Below are positions 2,286 to 51,851 of a stretch of 64,000 nt of DNA, piece by piece. A program made the position numbers and the translations under genes. The number at the start of each line of letters is the position of its first letter. Positions within the stretch are counted from its first letter, which is position 1. Source of the stretch: a virus (taxonomy: Duplodnaviria; Heunggongvirae; Uroviricota; Caudoviricetes). The stretch lies in the IMG/VR virus record IMGVR_UViG_2693429637_000011; one strand, given 5' to 3'. Under the pieces are notes generated by a model that worked only from the letters and a program-made list of their open reading frames with translations, was not told where the DNA came from and searched no databases.

Positions 2286-2539
2286 GGCCAGATTTGACAA
2301 ATCCGCATTAACGGGGATATATTCCGCTCCATGGTGCTGAACACACCTTCGAAAGCGGAAACCGCGCCCGTCAGTCATGCGGATTTTTTATGTCCATTTT
2401 TCAGATATGGTCGGGTAGCGCGTATACCGAAAAACAGCCGCAAGGCTAAGGATGCGGGCCGAACTTTCGACGGTGTTCAAGTACCCGACCGCCCTGCTGA
2501 ACACGGGGTGATCTGAACAAATCGAAAGGACATAAAACT

Positions 2540-39224: not shown

Positions 39225-41135
39225 TTATGCGGCTGCTCCAGCTTTGTTTGCTTTAACTTCCACCGTATCAATAAGTACAGGGTAGGTTTCTGCACTACCT
39301 GTAATATCCGTAATGACAAACCTGTTGAGTCCATTAGCAGTATTGGCCCATTTCACCAGGTCAAACGCCTGTCCATCCACACCATCGAGCACCGGAGTAA
39401 CATTAATGCTGTTACTGCCCTTAAATTTAAATGCAAGCGTATGCCAGTCATGGTCGAATGCGCCAAACGTGCCAAGTTCTTTTTGTTGATTAACTGTATG
39501 ATGGTATGCAACATTAATACTGGCTTTATCTGTCTGGACAAAGAAAGAACTCAGATGGCCTTCACCACCCTCACCCGGCCATTCCGCTATTCGCCAGTAC
39601 AAACCAAAGGCATACTTGTTTCTGGTTGTCTCAAGATTGACGTTTTCGGGGATTTTAAACCGGACAGCAATTTCTCCGCCTTTTTCCAGTAAAAGTTTTG
39701 CCTTGTCTGCAGCAATATCACAGTACATTGACCAGGATTTCGCGCTGTTATTTTTCTCAATTCGCAGAGCTTTATTGCCGCTGTCATCAACCAGTGTGCG
39801 CCTGCCATACACACCGTCCCAGCCATAGGGTTTCAGCTGATTGTCTGTAGCTTTTTTGGCATCGTAAAAAATTACAGACTCTGAGGTGGTAACCGGTCTG
39901 TCTGGAACAACCACCCCGGCAGTACCATTAACAAACGCAGAAGACTTACCCGCGCAGCTCAGAATCGCAGTTGCCAGACGGTCGGAAATAATCCCACGGC
40001 GAGCCCATGAACTGAAATGGCTCGCCCTGTCCTGTGACGTCCAGGTGGCTGAGCTGTCACGCCATTTCGAACCGTAATAACCGATACCCGGAATGTCCGG
40101 GTCTTCTTCCGGTTTGTTCGTCGGCACATTCACCCCGTTCTCATCGGTCATGAACGGTACGAAATGGATATTCTTTTCCGTTTTATTTTTATAGCTGCCG
40201 TACACCGTCTGGTACGTGGATTCGTTCTTCTGCTTCCAGAAATACGTCGTGTCCCCGCATATCCAGGGAACACCGCCAGCAGAGCCACCGACGCACTGGC
40301 CTGCCATATCCGCCAGGTCTGCACGGAATTTATCAACCAGCGCACCAAACTGTGCGGCATGATTTGCCGGCGTACCGCCAAAATCAAATTCCCCCTGCAT
40401 CCACACCACGGCAAACAGCACATTTTTCGGGTTCTTCTCCAGTGCCGCTTTTGTTCGACCGATAAGGTCCTTATACAGCGGCTTGTCCACACCCCAGCGG
40501 GTTGAATTCTCCGAGGCGCCACTCGCGTCACTGTATGTGCCATCAGCTCCGGTGGTGAACGCTGAACCACCACGACAGCACGGAACCAGCAGAATGCCCG
40601 CATTCGCCGGTATAAACGGCAGCAGTTTTTTGGCGATATGCAGCCCCTGCCCCACGGTTCCGTACTGCCCCTTTGACAGGTCCGCTTTCGGATGGTTAAG
40701 ACGGCTCATGTCCTGCACATCATGCAGACAATGGTCCGCCGGAATGATGTCGTTATATTTGCATGCTGCACCGCCCGGTGTCACCGTACTGCGACGCGCT
40801 AACTGTTTAATACGTGGATCAGGGCTGTCGAATGTATCCGGTAATGGCAGTCCCTCACCGTATGACATACCATTGGACTGACCAGCAAGCGCGATCACAT
40901 AGTAATATTCTGGCGCAACAGAAGGCGCTGAGGTCGTCGGACGGTTGCCTGGCTCCTCTGGTGATGAGATGCTCCCCTCACTCACAACTGGCTGGATGAA
41001 CTCCGCACCATAACCAGCTGTCGAAATCAGCGCACTACCATAAGGCTGCCACCCTTCCTTCAGTTTTTGAGTTATTCGTTTCGCAAGGTCTGACGGCGAC
41101 GCCGCCCTGACAACATCATAGTGTTTAAATGCCAT
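39225..41135 (-). CDS. nanS-p: Sialate O-acetylesterase, prophage NanS-p-like (copy 1)
   Basis: 636 aa; GQSN catalytic motif of the SASA/SGNH esterase family; conserved N-terminal MAFKHYDVVRAASPSDLAK...KEGWQP domain. Confidence 0.7.
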   Translation of the reverse strand: MAFKHYDVVRAASPSDLAKRITQKLKEGWQPYGSALISTAGYGAEFIQPVVSEGSISSPEEPGNRPTTSAPSVAPEYYYVIALAGQSNGMSYGEGLPLPDTFDSPDPRIKQLARRSTVTPGGAACKYNDIIPADHCLHDVQDMSRLNHPKADLSKGQYGTVGQGLHIAKKLLPFIPANAGILLVPCCRGGSAFTTGADGTYSDASGASENSTRWGVDKPLYKDLIGRTKAALEKNPKNVLFAVVWMQGEFDFGGTPANHAAQFGALVDKFRADLADMAGQCVGGSAGGVPWICGDTTYFWKQKNESTYQTVYGSYKNKTEKNIHFVPFMTDENGVNVPTNKPEEDPDIPGIGYYGSKWRDSSATWTSQDRASHFSSWARRGIISDRLATAILSCAGKSSAFVNGTAGVVVPDRPVTTSESVIFYDAKKATDNQLKPYGWDGVYGRRTLVDDSGNKALRIEKNNSAKSWSMYCDIAADKAKLLLEKGGEIAVRFKIPENVNLETTRNKYAFGLYWRIAEWPGEGGEGHLSSFFVQTDKASINVAYHHTVNQQKELGTFGAFDHDWHTLAFKFKGSNSINVTPVLDGVDGQAFDLVKWANTANGLNRFVITDITGSAETYPVLIDTVEVKANKAGAAA

Positions 41136-41557
41136 GAATCCTCCCGGCCGGGATAATATTGTGAGTAAAATAAGGAGCGGGCTGAAGTCCGGAAGTTACA
41201 GGACAATGGCAGAAGGGAGACTACAGCCCGCAATTCGAAAAAGGTCGCGCAGTTGCGCAGAGTGATTACTATGGGGTATTATTCGCCAGCTGAAATATTA
41301 CTTCACGTTTCATTGTTCATTCCTTGCCGCCCGCGTCTCCCAGCGCGGGCTTTTTTGTCCATAAGAAAGCCCCTCCGGAGAGGGGCTGGAGAGTGGCGCT
41401 ATGTGCCATTGCATGGTGCCGGGTGCCTCCCGGTGAGTTCAGCCCGGTGCCACTAAACCCGCGTCATTCTCGTTTTGATAATCAGAGATTATACCGTCAC
41501 CAGTCGCCCCTCCGCTCAGGGGGATTCACCATGCAGTTTTTTCTAACAAATTCTCAT
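41050..41557. repeat. Repeat A copy 1 (nanS-p 5' end plus ~400-bp upstream element)
   Basis: Near-identical to 45250..45742 and, in part, 46000..46300; contains hairpin cccgcg-N8-cgcggg plus T-run and a perfect TATAAT on the minus strand. Confidence 0.6.
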
Positions 41558-42596
41558 CAGCGCGGGTTTGATTACCGTATCCCTTCATTGGTCGGTTATT
41601 CATGTCCGTCAGCAACTCCCGAAGGCGTGCATTCAGCGCCCTGAGCGTGTGGAAGGTTTCATTACGGATGCGGGCAAGAAGCCATCGCTCGACGATGAGG
41701 ACGCCGTTTTCTGCTTTTGGTTTATCTTTAGGTTTGCGCGGGCGGGCCGGGATAATAACCGTGCCATAGTGCTCAGCCAGCGCCTGATAACTGTCGTTGA
41801 TGACAGGCTCATAGCGATCGGCTTTTTTCACTGCGCTTCTGAGGTTATCGGGGATGAGCAGCTTCGGTACGCCGCCCAGGAAGGTCAGGCAACGGCTGTG
41901 GGCATTTAACCATGACATCATGTCCTGACCTTCGCACGCTTCAACATAGGTATAGTTGGACGCCCCCATTACAGCCACGAAGATTGCCACGCGGCGTATC
42001 TCTCCGGTGTCCGGATTAATAACAGGGACCGTAGGACCACAGAAGTCGATAAAGAGCTTTTCGCCAGCACGATGCTCCTGTCGCATGGAGAGGCGTCGCG
42101 TTTTTTTCCACTTCCGGTAGCAACGGCAGAAGTGTGAGTATCCCATCGCTTTGTCACCCGCCTGTGCCTTGTATTCCATCCACAACAGTTGGCGCGTCAC
42201 GCCAGGTTTTCTCATTTCCGTATCGAAGTACAGCATGTCAGGCATAACAAGCTCTGACGCAGAGGTGTCTTTGGGCGGGAAAATGAGTTTCTCCAGCGTG
42301 TCATGGGATATATCCGCAGGTAATGGCCATGACAGAGAAGAGGCTTTGAAGCGGGCAAGAACCTCAAAAACGGTTGAGGCGCTGATGTGTAACGTCAGTC
42401 CGATACAACGGTTAGTCAGCTTCTTATCGAACTTGAGCTGAAGGATCTTAAAACAAGTTTCCATAGTGCTCCTGGATTTTCTCTTTTTGGACATTGACGT
42501 CTCCACTGGTTTAAACACGGCAATGGAGACTGTGGTGAAAAGAGTTAATTCCCGGAGTGACTGGCGAATTCCAATCAATGATCGGAAGTATGCCAA
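41526..42596 (-). CDS. IstA-like DDE transposase, probably truncated
   Basis: HTH N-terminus and FIDFCGPTV...VAIFVAV...YTYVE core; last codons read into repeat A. Confidence 0.5.
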   Translation of the reverse strand: MAYFRSLIGIRQSLRELTLFTTVSIAVFKPVETSMSKKRKSRSTMETCFKILQLKFDKKLTNRCIGLTLHISASTVFEVLARFKASSLSWPLPADISHDTLEKLIFPPKDTSASELVMPDMLYFDTEMRKPGVTRQLLWMEYKAQAGDKAMGYSHFCRCYRKWKKTRRLSMRQEHRAGEKLFIDFCGPTVPVINPDTGEIRRVAIFVAVMGASNYTYVEACEGQDMMSWLNAHSRCLTFLGGVPKLLIPDNLRSAVKKADRYEPVINDSYQALAEHYGTVIIPARPRKPKDKPKAENGVLIVERWLLARIRNETFHTLRALNARLRELLTDMNNRPMKGYGNQTRADENLLEKTAW

Positions 42597-42720
42597 ATCG
42601 TGATCGATTGTGATGCCAAACTGTGATCGGAGATGGATGCCAAATCATGATCGATTCGAATGCCAAACTGCGATCGATTCAGATGCCATTTTGCAATCAG
42701 CGCCAGAACAGCAGCTGACA
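41526..42720 (-). mobile_element. IS21-family-like element remnant (IstA-like transposase, no IstB)
   Basis: DDE transposase-like ORF; left end carries multiple atgccaaa(c/t)(c/t)gtgatcg terminal repeats (42540-42700); 3' end abuts repeat A. Confidence 0.5.
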
Positions 42721-42800
42721 GGCCGTATTTGATTTTTGCGCTCATGGATATTTATCAGGATGCTACCAATGAAAGATACTGGAAAGCCAACTGCAAAAAG

Positions 42801-43485: not shown

Positions 43486-45339
43486 TTATGATGATGCCGG
43501 TGCATTTATCTCCAGCACCAGACTTTCTATCTCAACGCCATACGCTGCATTTTTGGTAATATCCGTCAGCGTCAGCGCATTCAGCCCCAGTGTCAGACTG
43601 TCTTTTATGACCTGGAATGCCGGGCCAGCCACTCCATTCAGTTTCGGAGTAACCGTGGCACTGCCGGCGGTGAACACCAGCTCCAGCGTCAGCCAGTCGT
43701 TACTGTAATTCCCGAACTCGCCCAACTTTGTGTTTCCTGCTTTCTTGTGATGCATCAGATTCAGTTTGCCGTCTGTGGTCTGGGTGAAGAACGACATCAG
43801 GAACGGGTTACCAGTCCCGGTCATCGCCACGACGTCAGGTAACGCTACATCGGTATACAGATAAATTCCCAGACCGAACTGGTTGTTGGTCAGTGCGCCT
43901 GACAGTCGAAACTTACAGCTCAGTCTGCCACCCCGTGTCAGCAGGGAGACTGCGTCATCCACCGGGCGCGTCAGGGACCAGGCTTTATTGCTCTGCTTGG
44001 TGATCTTAAATACACCATCTGACAACTGAACTCCGCCATTCTTAATGCTCCAGCCCTGCGCAGCAGCGTCTCCGGCTGTCGGCAACAGGGAGATTGTGCG
44101 TATGGATGCATCTTCAGACGGCCCCGATGGCGTGTCGCCGCCGGGCGAGGGTTTGATTTCCGGTGCCTTACCACTAATGAAGGCTAAGGTGCGACCGGCT
44201 ACGTTCAGAATAGCAGTTGCCATACGATCGGGAATAATGCCACGACGCGCCCATGAGCTGAAATGCGTCGGGCGATTTGATGATACCCAGTTTTTGTTCG
44301 TTCGGGATGCCGAACCGTAATAACCAGACCCGGCAATATCAGGATCTTCTGACGGGTTGTTTGTCGGTGTATTAACTCCGCTACCATCGGTCATAAAGGG
44401 AACAAAATAAATCTGCTGGGATTCTTTACCTTTATATGCACCATATACCACTTCATATTGCGTACCGTGTTCTTGTTTCCACGCGTATGTCGTGTCGCCA
44501 CAAATCCAGGGGACTGATGCCGGACTTCCACCGTGACACTGCGCCGCCAGCCCGGCAAGGTCAGCACGGAACTGCTGTACCATTGCAAGAAATGCTGCTG
44601 GCTGCTGGGCGTAACTGGCATTCGTCATATCGAATTCCCCCTGCATCCAGCATATCGCCAGCAAAACGTTTTTCGGGTTTTTCTGCAATGCTGCCTTCGT
44701 GCGGAAAAGCAGATCCTGATATAACGGCTTACCCACTCCCCAGCGAGCCGAATCCTGACTGGCCCCCGTGGACTCGCTGAATGTCCCCTCCGTGCCCTGG
44801 GTGAATGCCGAACCACCACGACAGCATGGTACCAGCAGGATCCCCGCATTATTAGGGATATACGGAAGCAGTTTTTTGGCAATATGTAAGCCCTGTCCGA
44901 CACAGCCGTACTGCCCTTTGCTCAGGTCAGCCCGGGGATGGTTAATCGTACTCATATCCTGAACATCATGCAGACAATGGTCAGCAGGAATGATGTCGTT
45001 AAATACGCATACTTCACCACCGGGAGTCACTGTGTTACGACGGGCCAGTTGCTTAATGCGCGGATGGGGCGCATCGTATGAATCCGGAAGCGGAAGACCT
45101 TCACCGTAAGCCATGGCATTGGATTGCCCGGCCAGTACGATGACGTAGTACCACTCCGGCTCAGTTGCACCACTGACGACCACATCACCTTCTGCTGCAA
45201 TCGCCTGCATCAGGGTATAAGGGGTTATGGCCACCGGACTACCAAACGGCTGCCAGCCCTCCTTCAGTTTTTGTGTCAGTCGTTTCGCAAGGTCTGACGG
45301 CGATGCCGCCCTGACCACGTCATAGTGTTTAAATGCCAT
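43486..45339 (-). CDS. nanS-p: Sialate O-acetylesterase, NanS-p-like (copy 2, diverged paralog)
   Basis: 617 aa; GQSN motif; N-terminus identical to copy 1, remainder diverged. Confidence 0.7.
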   Translation of the reverse strand: MAFKHYDVVRAASPSDLAKRLTQKLKEGWQPFGSPVAITPYTLMQAIAAEGDVVVSGATEPEWYYVIVLAGQSNAMAYGEGLPLPDSYDAPHPRIKQLARRNTVTPGGEVCVFNDIIPADHCLHDVQDMSTINHPRADLSKGQYGCVGQGLHIAKKLLPYIPNNAGILLVPCCRGGSAFTQGTEGTFSESTGASQDSARWGVGKPLYQDLLFRTKAALQKNPKNVLLAICWMQGEFDMTNASYAQQPAAFLAMVQQFRADLAGLAAQCHGGSPASVPWICGDTTYAWKQEHGTQYEVVYGAYKGKESQQIYFVPFMTDGSGVNTPTNNPSEDPDIAGSGYYGSASRTNKNWVSSNRPTHFSSWARRGIIPDRMATAILNVAGRTLAFISGKAPEIKPSPGGDTPSGPSEDASIRTISLLPTAGDAAAQGWSIKNGGVQLSDGVFKITKQSNKAWSLTRPVDDAVSLLTRGGRLSCKFRLSGALTNNQFGLGIYLYTDVALPDVVAMTGTGNPFLMSFFTQTTDGKLNLMHHKKAGNTKLGEFGNYSNDWLTLELVFTAGSATVTPKLNGVAGPAFQVIKDSLTLGLNALTLTDITKNAAYGVEIESLVLEINAPASS

Positions 45340-45742
45340 GAATCCTCCCGGCCGGGATAATATTGTGAGTAAAATAAGGAGCGGGCTGAAGTCCGGAAGT
45401 TACAGGACAATGGCAGAAGAGAGACGACAGCCCGCAATTCGAAAAAGACCGCGCAGTTGCGCAGAGTGATTACTATGGGGTATTATTCGCCAGCTGAAAT
45501 ATTACTTCACGTTTTATTGTTTATTCCTTGCCGCCCGCGTCTCCCAGCGCGGGCTTTTTTTGCCCACAAGAAAACCCCTCCGGAGAGGGGCTAAAGCCGC
45601 GTATCTGTATCATCATGCACATGGTGCCGGGTGCCTCCCGGTGAGTTCAGCCCGGTGCCACTAAACCCGCGTCATTCTCGTTTTGATAATCAGAGATTAT
45701 ACCGTCACCAGTCGCCCCTCCGCTCAGGGGGATTCACCATGC
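45250..45742. repeat. Repeat A copy 2
   Basis: Near-identical to 41050..41534, with small indels. Confidence 0.6.
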
Positions 45743-45837
45743 GAAATTTTTTTAACAAATGCCCAGTCTGACAGGCAACTGTCAACTTACTGAATTGTGA
45801 GCAACATAGCATTTAACGGGGAACCTGTTTTCTGCAG

Positions 45838-45866
45838 TAAAAAGGCCCACCGGAGCGGATGGGCCT
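45838..45866 (-). terminator. Intrinsic terminator upstream of repeat A copy 2
   Basis: ggccca-N10-tgggcc hairpin plus T-run on minus strand. Confidence 0.45.
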
Positions 45867-45873
45867 GGAAGGA

Positions 45874-45999
45874 TGAGGTAGCCTGAGTTTAACGGACACT
45901 CCTTCCTGAAATAGAATGGCATCAGAAGGAGCTAATAATGAGCAGAAAAACCCAACGTTACTCTAAAGAGTTCAAAGCCGAAGCTGTCAGAACGGTTCA
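45874..45999 (+). mobile_element. IS3-family insertion sequence left-end fragment
   Basis: Begins TGAGG...; RBS plus orfA start MSRKTQRYSKEFKAEAVRTV then abrupt junction into repeat A copy 3. Confidence 0.55.
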
Positions 46000-46300
46000 G
46001 CAGAGTGATTACTATGGGGTATTATTCGCCAGCTGAAATATTACTTCACGTTTCATTGTTCATTCCTTGCCGCCCGCGTCTCCCAGCGCGGGCTTTTTTG
46101 TCCATAAGAAAGCCCCTCCGGAGAGGGGCTGGAGAGTGGCGCTATGTGCCATTGCATGGTGCCGGGTGCCTCCCGGTGAGTTCAGCCCGGTGCCACTAAA
46201 CCCGCGTCATTCTCGTTTTGATAATCAGAGATTATACCGTCACCAGTCGCCCCTCCGCTCAGGGGGATTCACCATGCAGTTTTTTCTAACAAATTCTCAT
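46000..46300. repeat. Repeat A copy 3 (partial, lacks nanS-p)
   Basis: Matches the upstream portion of copies 1 and 2. Confidence 0.6.
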
Positions 46301-46362
46301 CCGGGCAGACAACATTCAACTGACTTAATTGTGAGGTATGTAACATTCCCGTTGAACGGATA

Positions 46363-49262: not shown

Positions 49263-49606
49263 AATGACGCCCTCGAGTGGTTTCTAAACTATCACCACCG
49301 TCAGGTTCCTAATCATCGGGTGGCGAGACGTACAGGGTTAGGAACTACCGGGAAACCAACCGGCGAGCTTTTCAGCTCCCCTATACGCCCCACCATAATT
49401 CAGATGTGCGTGTGCATACGACAATAAAAAACACGCTCGCGGCGTGTCTCTGTCGCGGTTTCTATCCGGGGTTCCTAATCCCGACGCCAGATTTTGCTGG
49501 CGTGCGATGAATATAATCCCGGATACGCGACGTTGTCAAACTGATGGCATTGCAGATCCCTACGCAATGTAACACTATGTGTTATACATTAATAACGGAA
49601 CAAAAA

Positions 49607-51230: not shown

Positions 51231-51386
51231 TTACTCCTCAGGTTCGTAAGCTGTGAAGACAGTGACCTCCGTCTGACCGGTTCGGATTCGTACCTCGCAG
51301 AGGTCTTTCCTCGTTACCAGTGCCGTCACAATGACGGTAATACAGATGACGATCAGGGCGACTAACATCGCCTTTTGCTGCTTCAT
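51231..51386 (-). CDS. hok: Hok/Gef-family type I toxin (within overlapping mok frame 51231..51443)
   Basis: MKQQKAMLVALIVICITVIVTALVTRKDLCEVRIRTGQTEVTVFTAYEPEE nearly identical to HokD-type toxins; RBS aaggag. Confidence 0.8.
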   Translation of the reverse strand: MKQQKAMLVALIVICITVIVTALVTRKDLCEVRIRTGQTEVTVFTAYEPEE

Positions 51387-51851
51387 AGCCTGCTTCTCCT
51401 TGCCTTTCGGCGCGTAAGAGGCTAACCTACATGTGTCTAGCATGAAATTGGCCTCAGATTAATGTTAGGCGTCTTGCAGGACGCGTAATGTTAACTGGGG
51501 CTTTTCTCTGTCTGCCTTACGGTGGCATGCCCGAGGCAGACAGCCTCAAGCACCCGCAGCAATTCTACTTAACTCTCGCTTTACCGCAAACCGTTTTTAC
51601 CCGATATGGGAATTCCCATATCGTAATGAATTCAGTTCCCTAGTCGATCCATCAAAAACACAACCAGGCAGTAAACGCCCACAACAGCAATAACAGCCAG
51701 CGCACCTTCCATTGCCAGTGATATATCATCCGACATATTCCCTCCTTTGGTGTTAATCCCGGCGAACGTTTTTACCCCCACCGACAAATAACATATACTA
51801 AAAAATCAATAGCTATAGCAACGCCTGTAATTGCAAAGGCTTCAAGCCAGA

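Follow-up and report, generated by a model that had tools for sequence, protein, structure and literature searches.

An STnc100-family RNA and a putative convergent small RNA gene ahead of nanS-p in a rearranged lambdoid late region

Convergent pairs of Hfq-bound small RNA (sRNA) genes, located between the late promoter PR' or a moron and a conserved open reading frame (ORF), have been reported in eight Sakai prophages (PMC4104026, PMC7873438). In the dyads described by Tree et al. in 2014 (EcOnc27/AsxR and EcOnc06/AgvB; PMC4104026) the terminators of the two genes stand back to back. AsxR and AgvB occupy the same slot and act in trans as sRNA sponges (PMC7873438). Their partners belong to the STnc100 family (RF02076, 'Gammaproteobacterial sRNA' in Rfam), which includes EcOnc27/sRNA103 of Sakai Sp5/EDL933 and EcOnc04/05/06. 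Transcriptome reads were found for all 11 annotated STnc100 copies of EDL933, one of which is Northern-positive (PMC5331693). The location of STnc100 downstream of stx2 (PMC12370729, PMC12711010) and its link to esterase genes (bioRxiv 10.64898/2026.05.13.724894) have also been published, and effects of STnc100-type RNAs on fimZ and espA, along with an 11-nucleotide (nt) match to stxB, were reported without a mechanism. PasD1 and PasD2 of enteropathogenic Escherichia coli E2348/69 are reported structural relatives of STnc100, the likeness being drawn from their descriptions. They adjoin Q and a sialic-acid esterase gene, depend on Hfq and have many partners or targets identified by RIL-seq (ligation and sequencing of interacting RNAs); their seed regions are said to differ from those of STnc100. 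Here we analyze Repeat A, an element present in three copies in a 64,000-nt stretch of viral DNA (IMG/VR record IMGVR_UViG_2693429637_000011, further referred to as the window), the first copy of which occupies positions 41136-41557. Repeat A very probably consists of two convergent, separately terminated small RNA genes and the conserved 5' leader of nanS-p. Such an element is already known: Rfam includes the family, and the dyad arrangement has been in print since 2014. The repeat is real, yet unremarkable. New and modest are the covariation of a pseudoknot in the STnc100 core and a 22-mer that is invariant across Enterobacteriaceae and Erwiniaceae.

The Rfam 15 scan, recommended in the original prediction of Repeat A, yielded three STnc100 matches on the minus (late) strand, far above the 47-bit gathering score of RF02076. 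They are located at 41357..41562 (copy 1; cmscan, 160.7 bits, E 1e-36), 45771-45562 (copy 2; 161.0 bits) and 46305-46100 (copy 3; 165.1 bits). With the upstream box included, copies 2 and 3 span 45562..45801 and 46100..46335, respectively. All three cover model positions 1-206 of 206, including the closing helix, the hairpins and the 3' terminator, with E-values from 1e-36 to 8e-38; the presence of a repeated element is thus confirmed at a similarity far beyond chance. On the strength of this full-length match in sequence and helices, the minus-strand element is a member of the STnc100 family. In copy 1 the first ~5 model positions are derived from an insertion sequence (IS), and homology to the other copies begins at 41558.

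The consensus fold consists of P1, P2, P4, P5, a linker and the terminator, in this order. The structured core of copy 1, as defined by the Rfam consensus structure and motif coordinates, spans 41411..41534 (minus strand). It comprises the closing helix P1 (41534-41527 with 41418-41411; GCAUGGUG/CACCAUGC) and the hairpins P2 (41523-41507; CCCCU/AGGGG), P4 (41460-41435) and P5 (41433-41419), the consensus for the last two being CCGGG-AGGCA-CCCGG. The minimum-free-energy fold of copy 1 recovered P1, P2, P4, P5 and the terminator (z = -2.9). This intrinsic terminator (41387 to 41361, minus strand; model positions ~178-206), overlooked in the original prediction, consists of AGCCCCTCTCCGGAGGGGCT followed by TTCTTAT, has eight pairs, six of them G-C, in the terminator scan, and forms the end of the 206-nt structured RNA. 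Its counterparts are located at 45592-45566 in copy 2 and 46130-46104 in copy 3. Upstream of the model, copy 2 carries the box CTCACAATTCAG (45801-45790) and TTGACA (45785-45780), and copy 3, the box at 46335-46324 and TTGAAT at 46319-46314.

The opposite strand carries the second gene. In copy 1 (41253..41356, plus strand) it has the -35 hexamer TTGCGC (41253-41258), an 18-nt spacer, the -10 hexamer TATTAT (41277-41282) and a terminator at 41326-41356. The latter is the GC-rich plus-strand hairpin with a T-run seen in the original prediction (41329-41350, TTTTTT to 41356), and it recurs at 45533-45554 and 46072-46093. Copy 2 of the gene occupies 45457..45561 (-35, 45457-45462; -10, 45481-45486; terminator, 45530-45561). 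In copy 3 (46020..46099; -10, 46020-46025; terminator, 46069-46099) an IS600 remnant stands in place of the -35 hexamer. Among 13 unique variants of this gene, TATTAT is present in all and TTGCGC in 12, the 13th being copy 3 of the window; the sequence of the 18-nt spacer is variable. Given the invariant hexamers and an AsxR-like promoter geometry, an RNA of ~67 nt is predicted, starting at ~41289-41290 and ending at 41356. It would consist of a single-stranded 5' part and the terminator hairpin (z = -3.2). The anatomy of the plus-strand gene is thus directly visible, and its expression is inferred. With ends at 41361 (minus strand) and 41356 (plus strand), the two terminators stand back to back 4-5 nt apart, and the same holds for copies 2 and 3. 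Hence the possibility raised earlier, that Repeat A is a small-RNA locus, is supported: each element holds two convergent small RNA genes, and for the loci orthologous to them Hfq cross-linking and Northern data are published.

The closest relatives of the plus-strand gene are EcOnc08/21/42 (Sakai Sp4; Sp15, 3' of stx1B), which have the same hexamers and terminator; this family is not in Rfam. Identity to Sakai Sp4 is 94-97% over the predicted RNA (97% for copy 2) and 93-97% over the convergent gene region. Tree et al. reported the Hfq cross-link cluster EcOnc08, 73 nt next to the terminator, on the convergent strand of Sp4, and EcOnc05 on its STnc100 copy (PMC4104026). The published Northern probe sequences confirm both placements unambiguously, and the Sp4 coordinates are consistent with the.2 record without an offset. 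The EcOnc08 probe is identical to the window in 28 of 31 aligned positions. Assignment of the plus-strand RNA to AsxR (RF02703) or AgvB (RF02702) was rejected, as neither model had a match at E <= 10 in 41100-41600, the AsxR control in Sakai Sp5 scoring 88 bits. The conserved ~42-nt 3' domain of AsxR and AgvB (GCCCGAACCCAYTCGGGC) is absent from the window copies, and comparison with the AsxR slot gives only an 18-nt local alignment. Weak matches of the plus-strand RNA to OmrA-B and anti-hemB (E 0.04-0.5) involve the terminator alone.

The dyad of the window corresponds closely to those of the Sakai prophages. In Sp5, STnc100 (208 bits) begins 75 nt after stx2B and is immediately followed, on the opposite strand and terminator to terminator, by AsxR. 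The window aligns with Sp5 on both flanks of the AsxR slot and contains a different cassette inside it. The AsxR promoter, whose start has been mapped, has the geometry of the window gene (TTGCGC, 18 nt, TAAAAT), and the published dyads share with the window the TTGCGC -35 hexamer in the same conserved block, the 18-nt spacer, and the flanking STnc100 and nanS-p leader. They differ in that the short RNA of the window falls outside the AsxR and AgvB families. As elsewhere, STnc100 of the window is on the late strand, after PR' or a moron and ahead of nanS-p. Overall identity of the window copies to STnc100 of Sp5 and Sp4 is 74-80% (Sp4, 80%); the window has its own TATAAT-bearing insert variant, and copy 1 is truncated at its 5' end.

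This TATAAT had been noticed in the original prediction as a perfect minus-strand hexamer without an obvious -35, and a regulated promoter controlling nanS-p was proposed. The hexamer, without a usable -35, is indeed found in all three copies (41493 to 41488, 45701 to 45696 and 46236 to 46231), perfect in each and ~350 nt upstream of nanS-p. This could suggest an activator-dependent promoter that drives nanS-p in the lysogen. However, there is neither a -35 box nor a TGn extension, and the hexamer sits within the RNA fold, in the hypervariable insert that separates the pseudoknot strand from P4 and is the most variable part of the family. It occurs in seven of 114 unique family variants and is absent from Sakai Sp4 and Sp5, whose nanS-p leader is the same. 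Moreover, a transcript starting from it would reach the STnc100 terminator ~100 nt on. TATAAT was therefore rejected as a promoter, and we regard its role in driving nanS-p as highly improbable.

Conservation of the core was studied across the family. The segment following P2 pairs with the loop of P4, forming a pseudoknot (in copy 1, CTGGTG 41503-41498 with CACCGG 41449-41444, minus strand); this pairing is not in the structure line printed by cmscan for RF02076. Concerted change of the two strands is seen in no fewer than 27 different sequence pairs, such as CUGGUG/CACCGG, CCAGUC/GACUGG, AUCAGC/GCUGAU and GCUAGGC/GUCUAGC. We used a per-sequence duplex test with mismatched partners as controls. 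Among 38 distinct sequence combinations, duplexes of at least six contiguous pairs were formed by 79% of true pairs, compared to 16% of mismatched controls. Formal pair counting on the MAFFT alignment was dropped, since the helix registers shift by 1-2 nt between subtypes. The exact 22-mer CACCGGGAGGCACCCGGCACCA, which corresponds to P5 and the 3' strand of P1, is present in more than 120 viral contigs and in 110 DNA stretches from species-representative genomes. The genera include Escherichia, Shigella, Enterobacter, Klebsiella, Citrobacter, Kosakonia, Raoultella, Buttiauxella, Pantoea, Erwinia and others, and the core with the GGUGAAUCC motif is found across Enterobacteriaceae and Erwiniaceae. 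About 24 further sequences contain the 22-mer and lack GGTGAAT; they may form a divergent subgroup.

The genomic position is also conserved. In all 135 occurrences the RNA follows Q or a moron (stxB, a DNA methylase gene, tRNA genes) and precedes nanS-p or a holin gene. A terminator beginning at a median of 29 nt past the core was found in 76 of 114 variants. Terminators of unrelated sequence stand behind the same core, and by eye no conserved alternative pairing between core and terminator was seen. In four unrelated viral contigs STnc100 copies occur in tandem, 484 nt apart, the spacing in the window being 535 nt; hence the tandem arrangement of the window is not unique.

Promoters of STnc100 differ between subtypes. 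In 22 of 45 unique upstream segments from other genera, a canonical sigma-70 promoter has its -10 box ending 8-9 nt before GGTGAAT, so that transcription would start at P1. Family variants of this kind have a promoter of the TTGACN-17/18-TAAATT type, whose -10 box ends 8-9 nt before P1. The subtype of the window has the A-rich tract TTTGTTARAAAAA at the proximal -10 position and, further upstream, CTCACAATT-N7-TTGACA, ahead of which stand TAAAT-like or TGn -10-like sequences. The published Northern sizes are ~177 nt (EcOnc06), ~222 nt (Sp4) and 235/247 nt (Sp5). Both starts fit these sizes, the band of ~177 nt corresponding to the proximal start and those of ~222 and 235/247 nt to the start at the box; the gap of 13 nt between Sp4 and Sp5 agrees with the 15-nt insert difference between these copies. 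In copy 1 the box is lost. As its upstream promoter region has been removed by an IS21-family fragment, copy 1 is probably expressed poorly or aberrantly.

Several observations weigh against reading Repeat A as a pair of small RNA genes. There are two candidate starts for the minus-strand RNA, one at the CTCACAATT box ~30 nt upstream of the Rfam model and the other at the A-rich tract 7 nt ahead of P1, and a canonical sigma-70 site is absent in most variants of the window's subtype. The EcOnc08 probe lies over the promoter of the plus-strand gene, upstream of the predicted start, and the published band is ~271 nt (PMC4104026), compared to ~67 nt predicted in the window; either a longer convergent transcript also exists or the predicted start is wrong. 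Expression evidence stems from orthologues rather than from the window copies, and the literature consulted establishes no direct target for any RNA of the STnc100 type. Finally, a pseudoknotted core with an invariant 22-mer is unusual for a plain base-pairing sRNA. Lambdoid phages may have in the core more than an Hfq-dependent base-pairing RNA, namely a conserved pseudoknotted module that recognizes a protein or a ligand or acts in cis on late transcription, with the insert and the 3' linker being exchangeable seeds; we consider this unlikely on the present evidence.

The same properties of the core could indicate a leader that works chiefly in cis, resembling a riboswitch or attenuator or a put-like antitermination RNA and gating read-through from its own promoter into nanS-p or the lysis genes, the sRNA being a by-product as in the case of StxS. 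Such a leader would account for the compact, multi-helix, strongly covarying core, the invariance of the 22-mer across many genera, and the constant position of the RNA at the start of the late operon, with nanS-p or a holin gene next in line. The terminator shortly past the core resembles an expression platform, and in non-E. coli variants the best sigma-70-like site gives a start exactly at P1 in the 22 of 45 upstream segments mentioned above. However, the same core carries quite different terminator sequences, by eye no conserved pairing was seen between the core and the 5' arm of the terminator (the 3' strand of P2 could form it in the window's subtype only), and 38 of 114 variants have no terminator in the scan. 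The late genes are Q-dependent already, no Rfam riboswitch or leader family was matched, and the orthologues are known as discrete RNAs bound by Hfq that have many partners in trans. A predominantly cis-acting role is a minority possibility and appears quite unlikely. The ~271-nt band suggests another scheme, in which nanS-p is regulated in cis by antisense, either through the convergent RNA or through a longer version that begins near or within the nanS-p start, with the late-strand sequence as the target. An RNA of this length, detected by a probe upstream of the short RNA, would reach the nanS-p start codon; a promoter-like sequence ATGCCA-17-GATAAT is present on the plus strand at 41129-41157, and the nanS-p leader is 96-97% conserved. 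But this promoter would yield ~193 nt instead of 271 nt, the Hfq cross-link cluster is limited to the terminator-proximal 73 nt, AsxR and AgvB of the same slot are trans-acting sponges, and here too expression is known from orthologues and not from the window. We thus consider antisense control unlikely, and prefer the reading of Repeat A as two convergent sRNA genes.

If the two genes behave as their published orthologues, which bind Hfq and are found as discrete RNAs in uninduced cultures (PMC4104026, PMC7873438, PMC5331693), the following scheme can be proposed. In the lysogen both RNAs would be transcribed from their own sigma-70 promoters and stop at their own terminators; bound to Hfq, they would target mRNAs or sRNAs of the host or the prophage in trans. 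Upon induction, RNA polymerase that starts at PR' and is modified by Q would pass both tR' and the STnc100 terminator and go on to transcribe nanS-p and the lysis genes; otherwise the terminators would shield nanS-p from upstream transcription. The convergent transcript would be antisense to any read-through nanS-p leader and may damp it. The element may thus control nanS-p, and it would not be nanS-p-specific, as in other phages the STnc100 RNA is located upstream of holin genes.

The element occupies the moron insertion point of a lambdoid (Stx-phage-like) prophage, flanked by the Q-dependent late promoter on one side and the first late genes on the other. On the minus strand of the window, antiterminator Q (47177-46644, PF06530) is followed by PR' (46656-46629; TTTACG, 16 nt, TATCAT in the promoter scan), the StxS leader (46622-46365) directly upstream of STnc100 copy 3, and tR' (46395-46365 in the terminator scan). 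The dyad thus follows the order Q, PR', tR', STnc100 and nanS-p; copy 3 has no nanS-p downstream because of the IS600 remnant. From the end of Q to 46365 the sequence is ~98% identical to the Stx2 prophage Sakai Sp5, where PR' starts transcription 22 nt after Q and the 3' end of tR' is 258 nt later, the transcript being the sRNA StxS (PMC7547250). In Sp5, the junction of tR' and the conserved box (C)TCACAATT that precedes STnc100 is exactly where the tRNA genes and stx2AB are inserted. The window contains the full PR'-StxS-tR' module without stx or tRNA genes, and STnc100 directly follows tR' at the point of the Sp5 moron. The position of the moron shows that the STnc100 module is a separate unit. 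Accordingly, the alternative that the element is simply the 3' untranslated region of an upstream gene does not hold, as the module belongs to no particular gene. STnc100 as the PR'-tR' leader RNA, an analogue of lambda 6S, was rejected for this phage type, since PR', StxS and tR' lie upstream and the stx/tRNA moron separates tR' from STnc100. Like STnc100, StxS is a small RNA encoded in the leader of the late operon and produced in lysogens. It is a separate transcription unit, arising as a by-product when transcripts from PR' are terminated and processed by RNase E; STnc100 has module boundaries of its own and persists despite the stx/tRNA insertion.

The two nanS-p genes, 39225..41135 (copy 1, ATG 41135-41133) and 45339-43486 (copy 2), both on the minus strand, encode proteins with the Pfam domains DUF1737, SASA esterase and DUF6645, and each is followed by holin genes. 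Their leaders occupy 41136..41260 and, according to the alignments, 45340..45464. In copy 1 the leader contains a hairpin with a T5 run (41260-41236), the long-range stem GCGGGCTG/CAGCCCGC and the CCCGGCCGGG hairpin by the Shine-Dalgarno sequence. It is 96-97% identical to those of Sakai Sp4 and Sp5 (Sp4, 96%), and its fold is unexceptional (z = -1.4). The position upstream of each nanS-p, claimed for the element earlier, is correct for copies 1 and 2, each of which precedes one of the two nanS-p genes; downstream of copy 3 (46.0-46.3 kb) come the IS600 remnant and the next copy. Similarly, a late-strand intrinsic terminator precedes copy 2 (45866-45843 in the terminator scan) and copy 3 (46395 to 46376) and is missing ahead of copy 1, which is abutted by an IS21-like istA fragment.

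This fragment (ISSso4 family, istA only; 41557..42695, minus strand; 99.9% to annotated istA by megablast) connects the truncated start of a lysozyme gene (42693-42745) with STnc100 copy 1 at 41558/41559, removing the box and everything upstream, and its ORF (42596 to 41526) runs ~30 nt into the RNA. The left-end remnant of IS600 (IS3 family; 45865..45998, plus strand; 99.3% to annotated IS600 by megablast) lies between copies 3 and 2. The late region is therefore rearranged, and the window holds two late regions joined together, with two nanS-p and two holins. Copy 1 is 99% identical to copy 3 (41252-41551 with 45995-46294) and 94% identical to copy 2 (41028-41327 with 45232-45531). In the three-way alignment, indels distinguish the copies in the stretch from the 3' strand of P1 to the terminator. 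The statement that the copies have no consistent ORF and differ by indels was correct: the sole recurring ORF, 43 codons in antisense orientation (41134-41265, plus strand; over the nanS-p start and leader), is unconvincing. Outside close relatives it is not retained; its changes are for the most part non-synonymous and one variant carries a frameshift, so that it is probably non-coding. Overall, the earlier observations on Repeat A are partly confirmed and their interpretation is partly supported.

The 11-mer TTACTTCACGT at 41298-41308 (plus strand) of the convergent RNA, also present in copies 2 and 3, is identical to nt 40-50 of Spot 42, so on the late strand there are 11 nt perfectly complementary to Spot 42. 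In 3000 dinucleotide shuffles an identity of 11 nt was never reached, a figure uncorrected for the many comparable sRNAs. Spot 42 represses nanC in the chromosomal nanC-nanM-nanS operon, nanS being the core counterpart of nanS-p. The 11-mer could thus tie the dyad to sialic-acid catabolism and nanS-p. A link via nanC itself was not supported, as the nanC leader pairs with the 5' end of Spot 42 and has no ACGUGAAGUAA site. Elsewhere in the window, Rfam matches above the gathering score were C4 antisense RNA, isrK, sok and two sRNA-Xcc1, located at 49316-49503 and 51381-51555 (minus strand) and at 1518-1606 and 2409-2498 (plus strand); the scan for tRNA and transfer-messenger RNA genes found none in the window.

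Of 5426 complete E. coli genomes, 2514 contain a match to the 422-bp element, at as many as 11 sites per genome, mostly unannotated. In strain FORC_069 the element is 100% identical to that of the window, and STnc100 directly follows tR' there as well. In the Prokaryotic Genome Annotation Pipeline (PGAP) and phage records such loci are unannotated or overlaid by spurious 'hypothetical proteins'. The annotation value of our analysis is small; worth recording are the unannotated loci, the two IS-damaged copies, and the conserved pseudoknotted core, which has no published functional explanation. STnc100/EcOnc27 variants downstream of stx2 are statistically tied to the outcome of hemolytic uremic syndrome (PMC12711010), and by virtue of this association mechanistic insight into the STnc100 RNA would be of clinical relevance.

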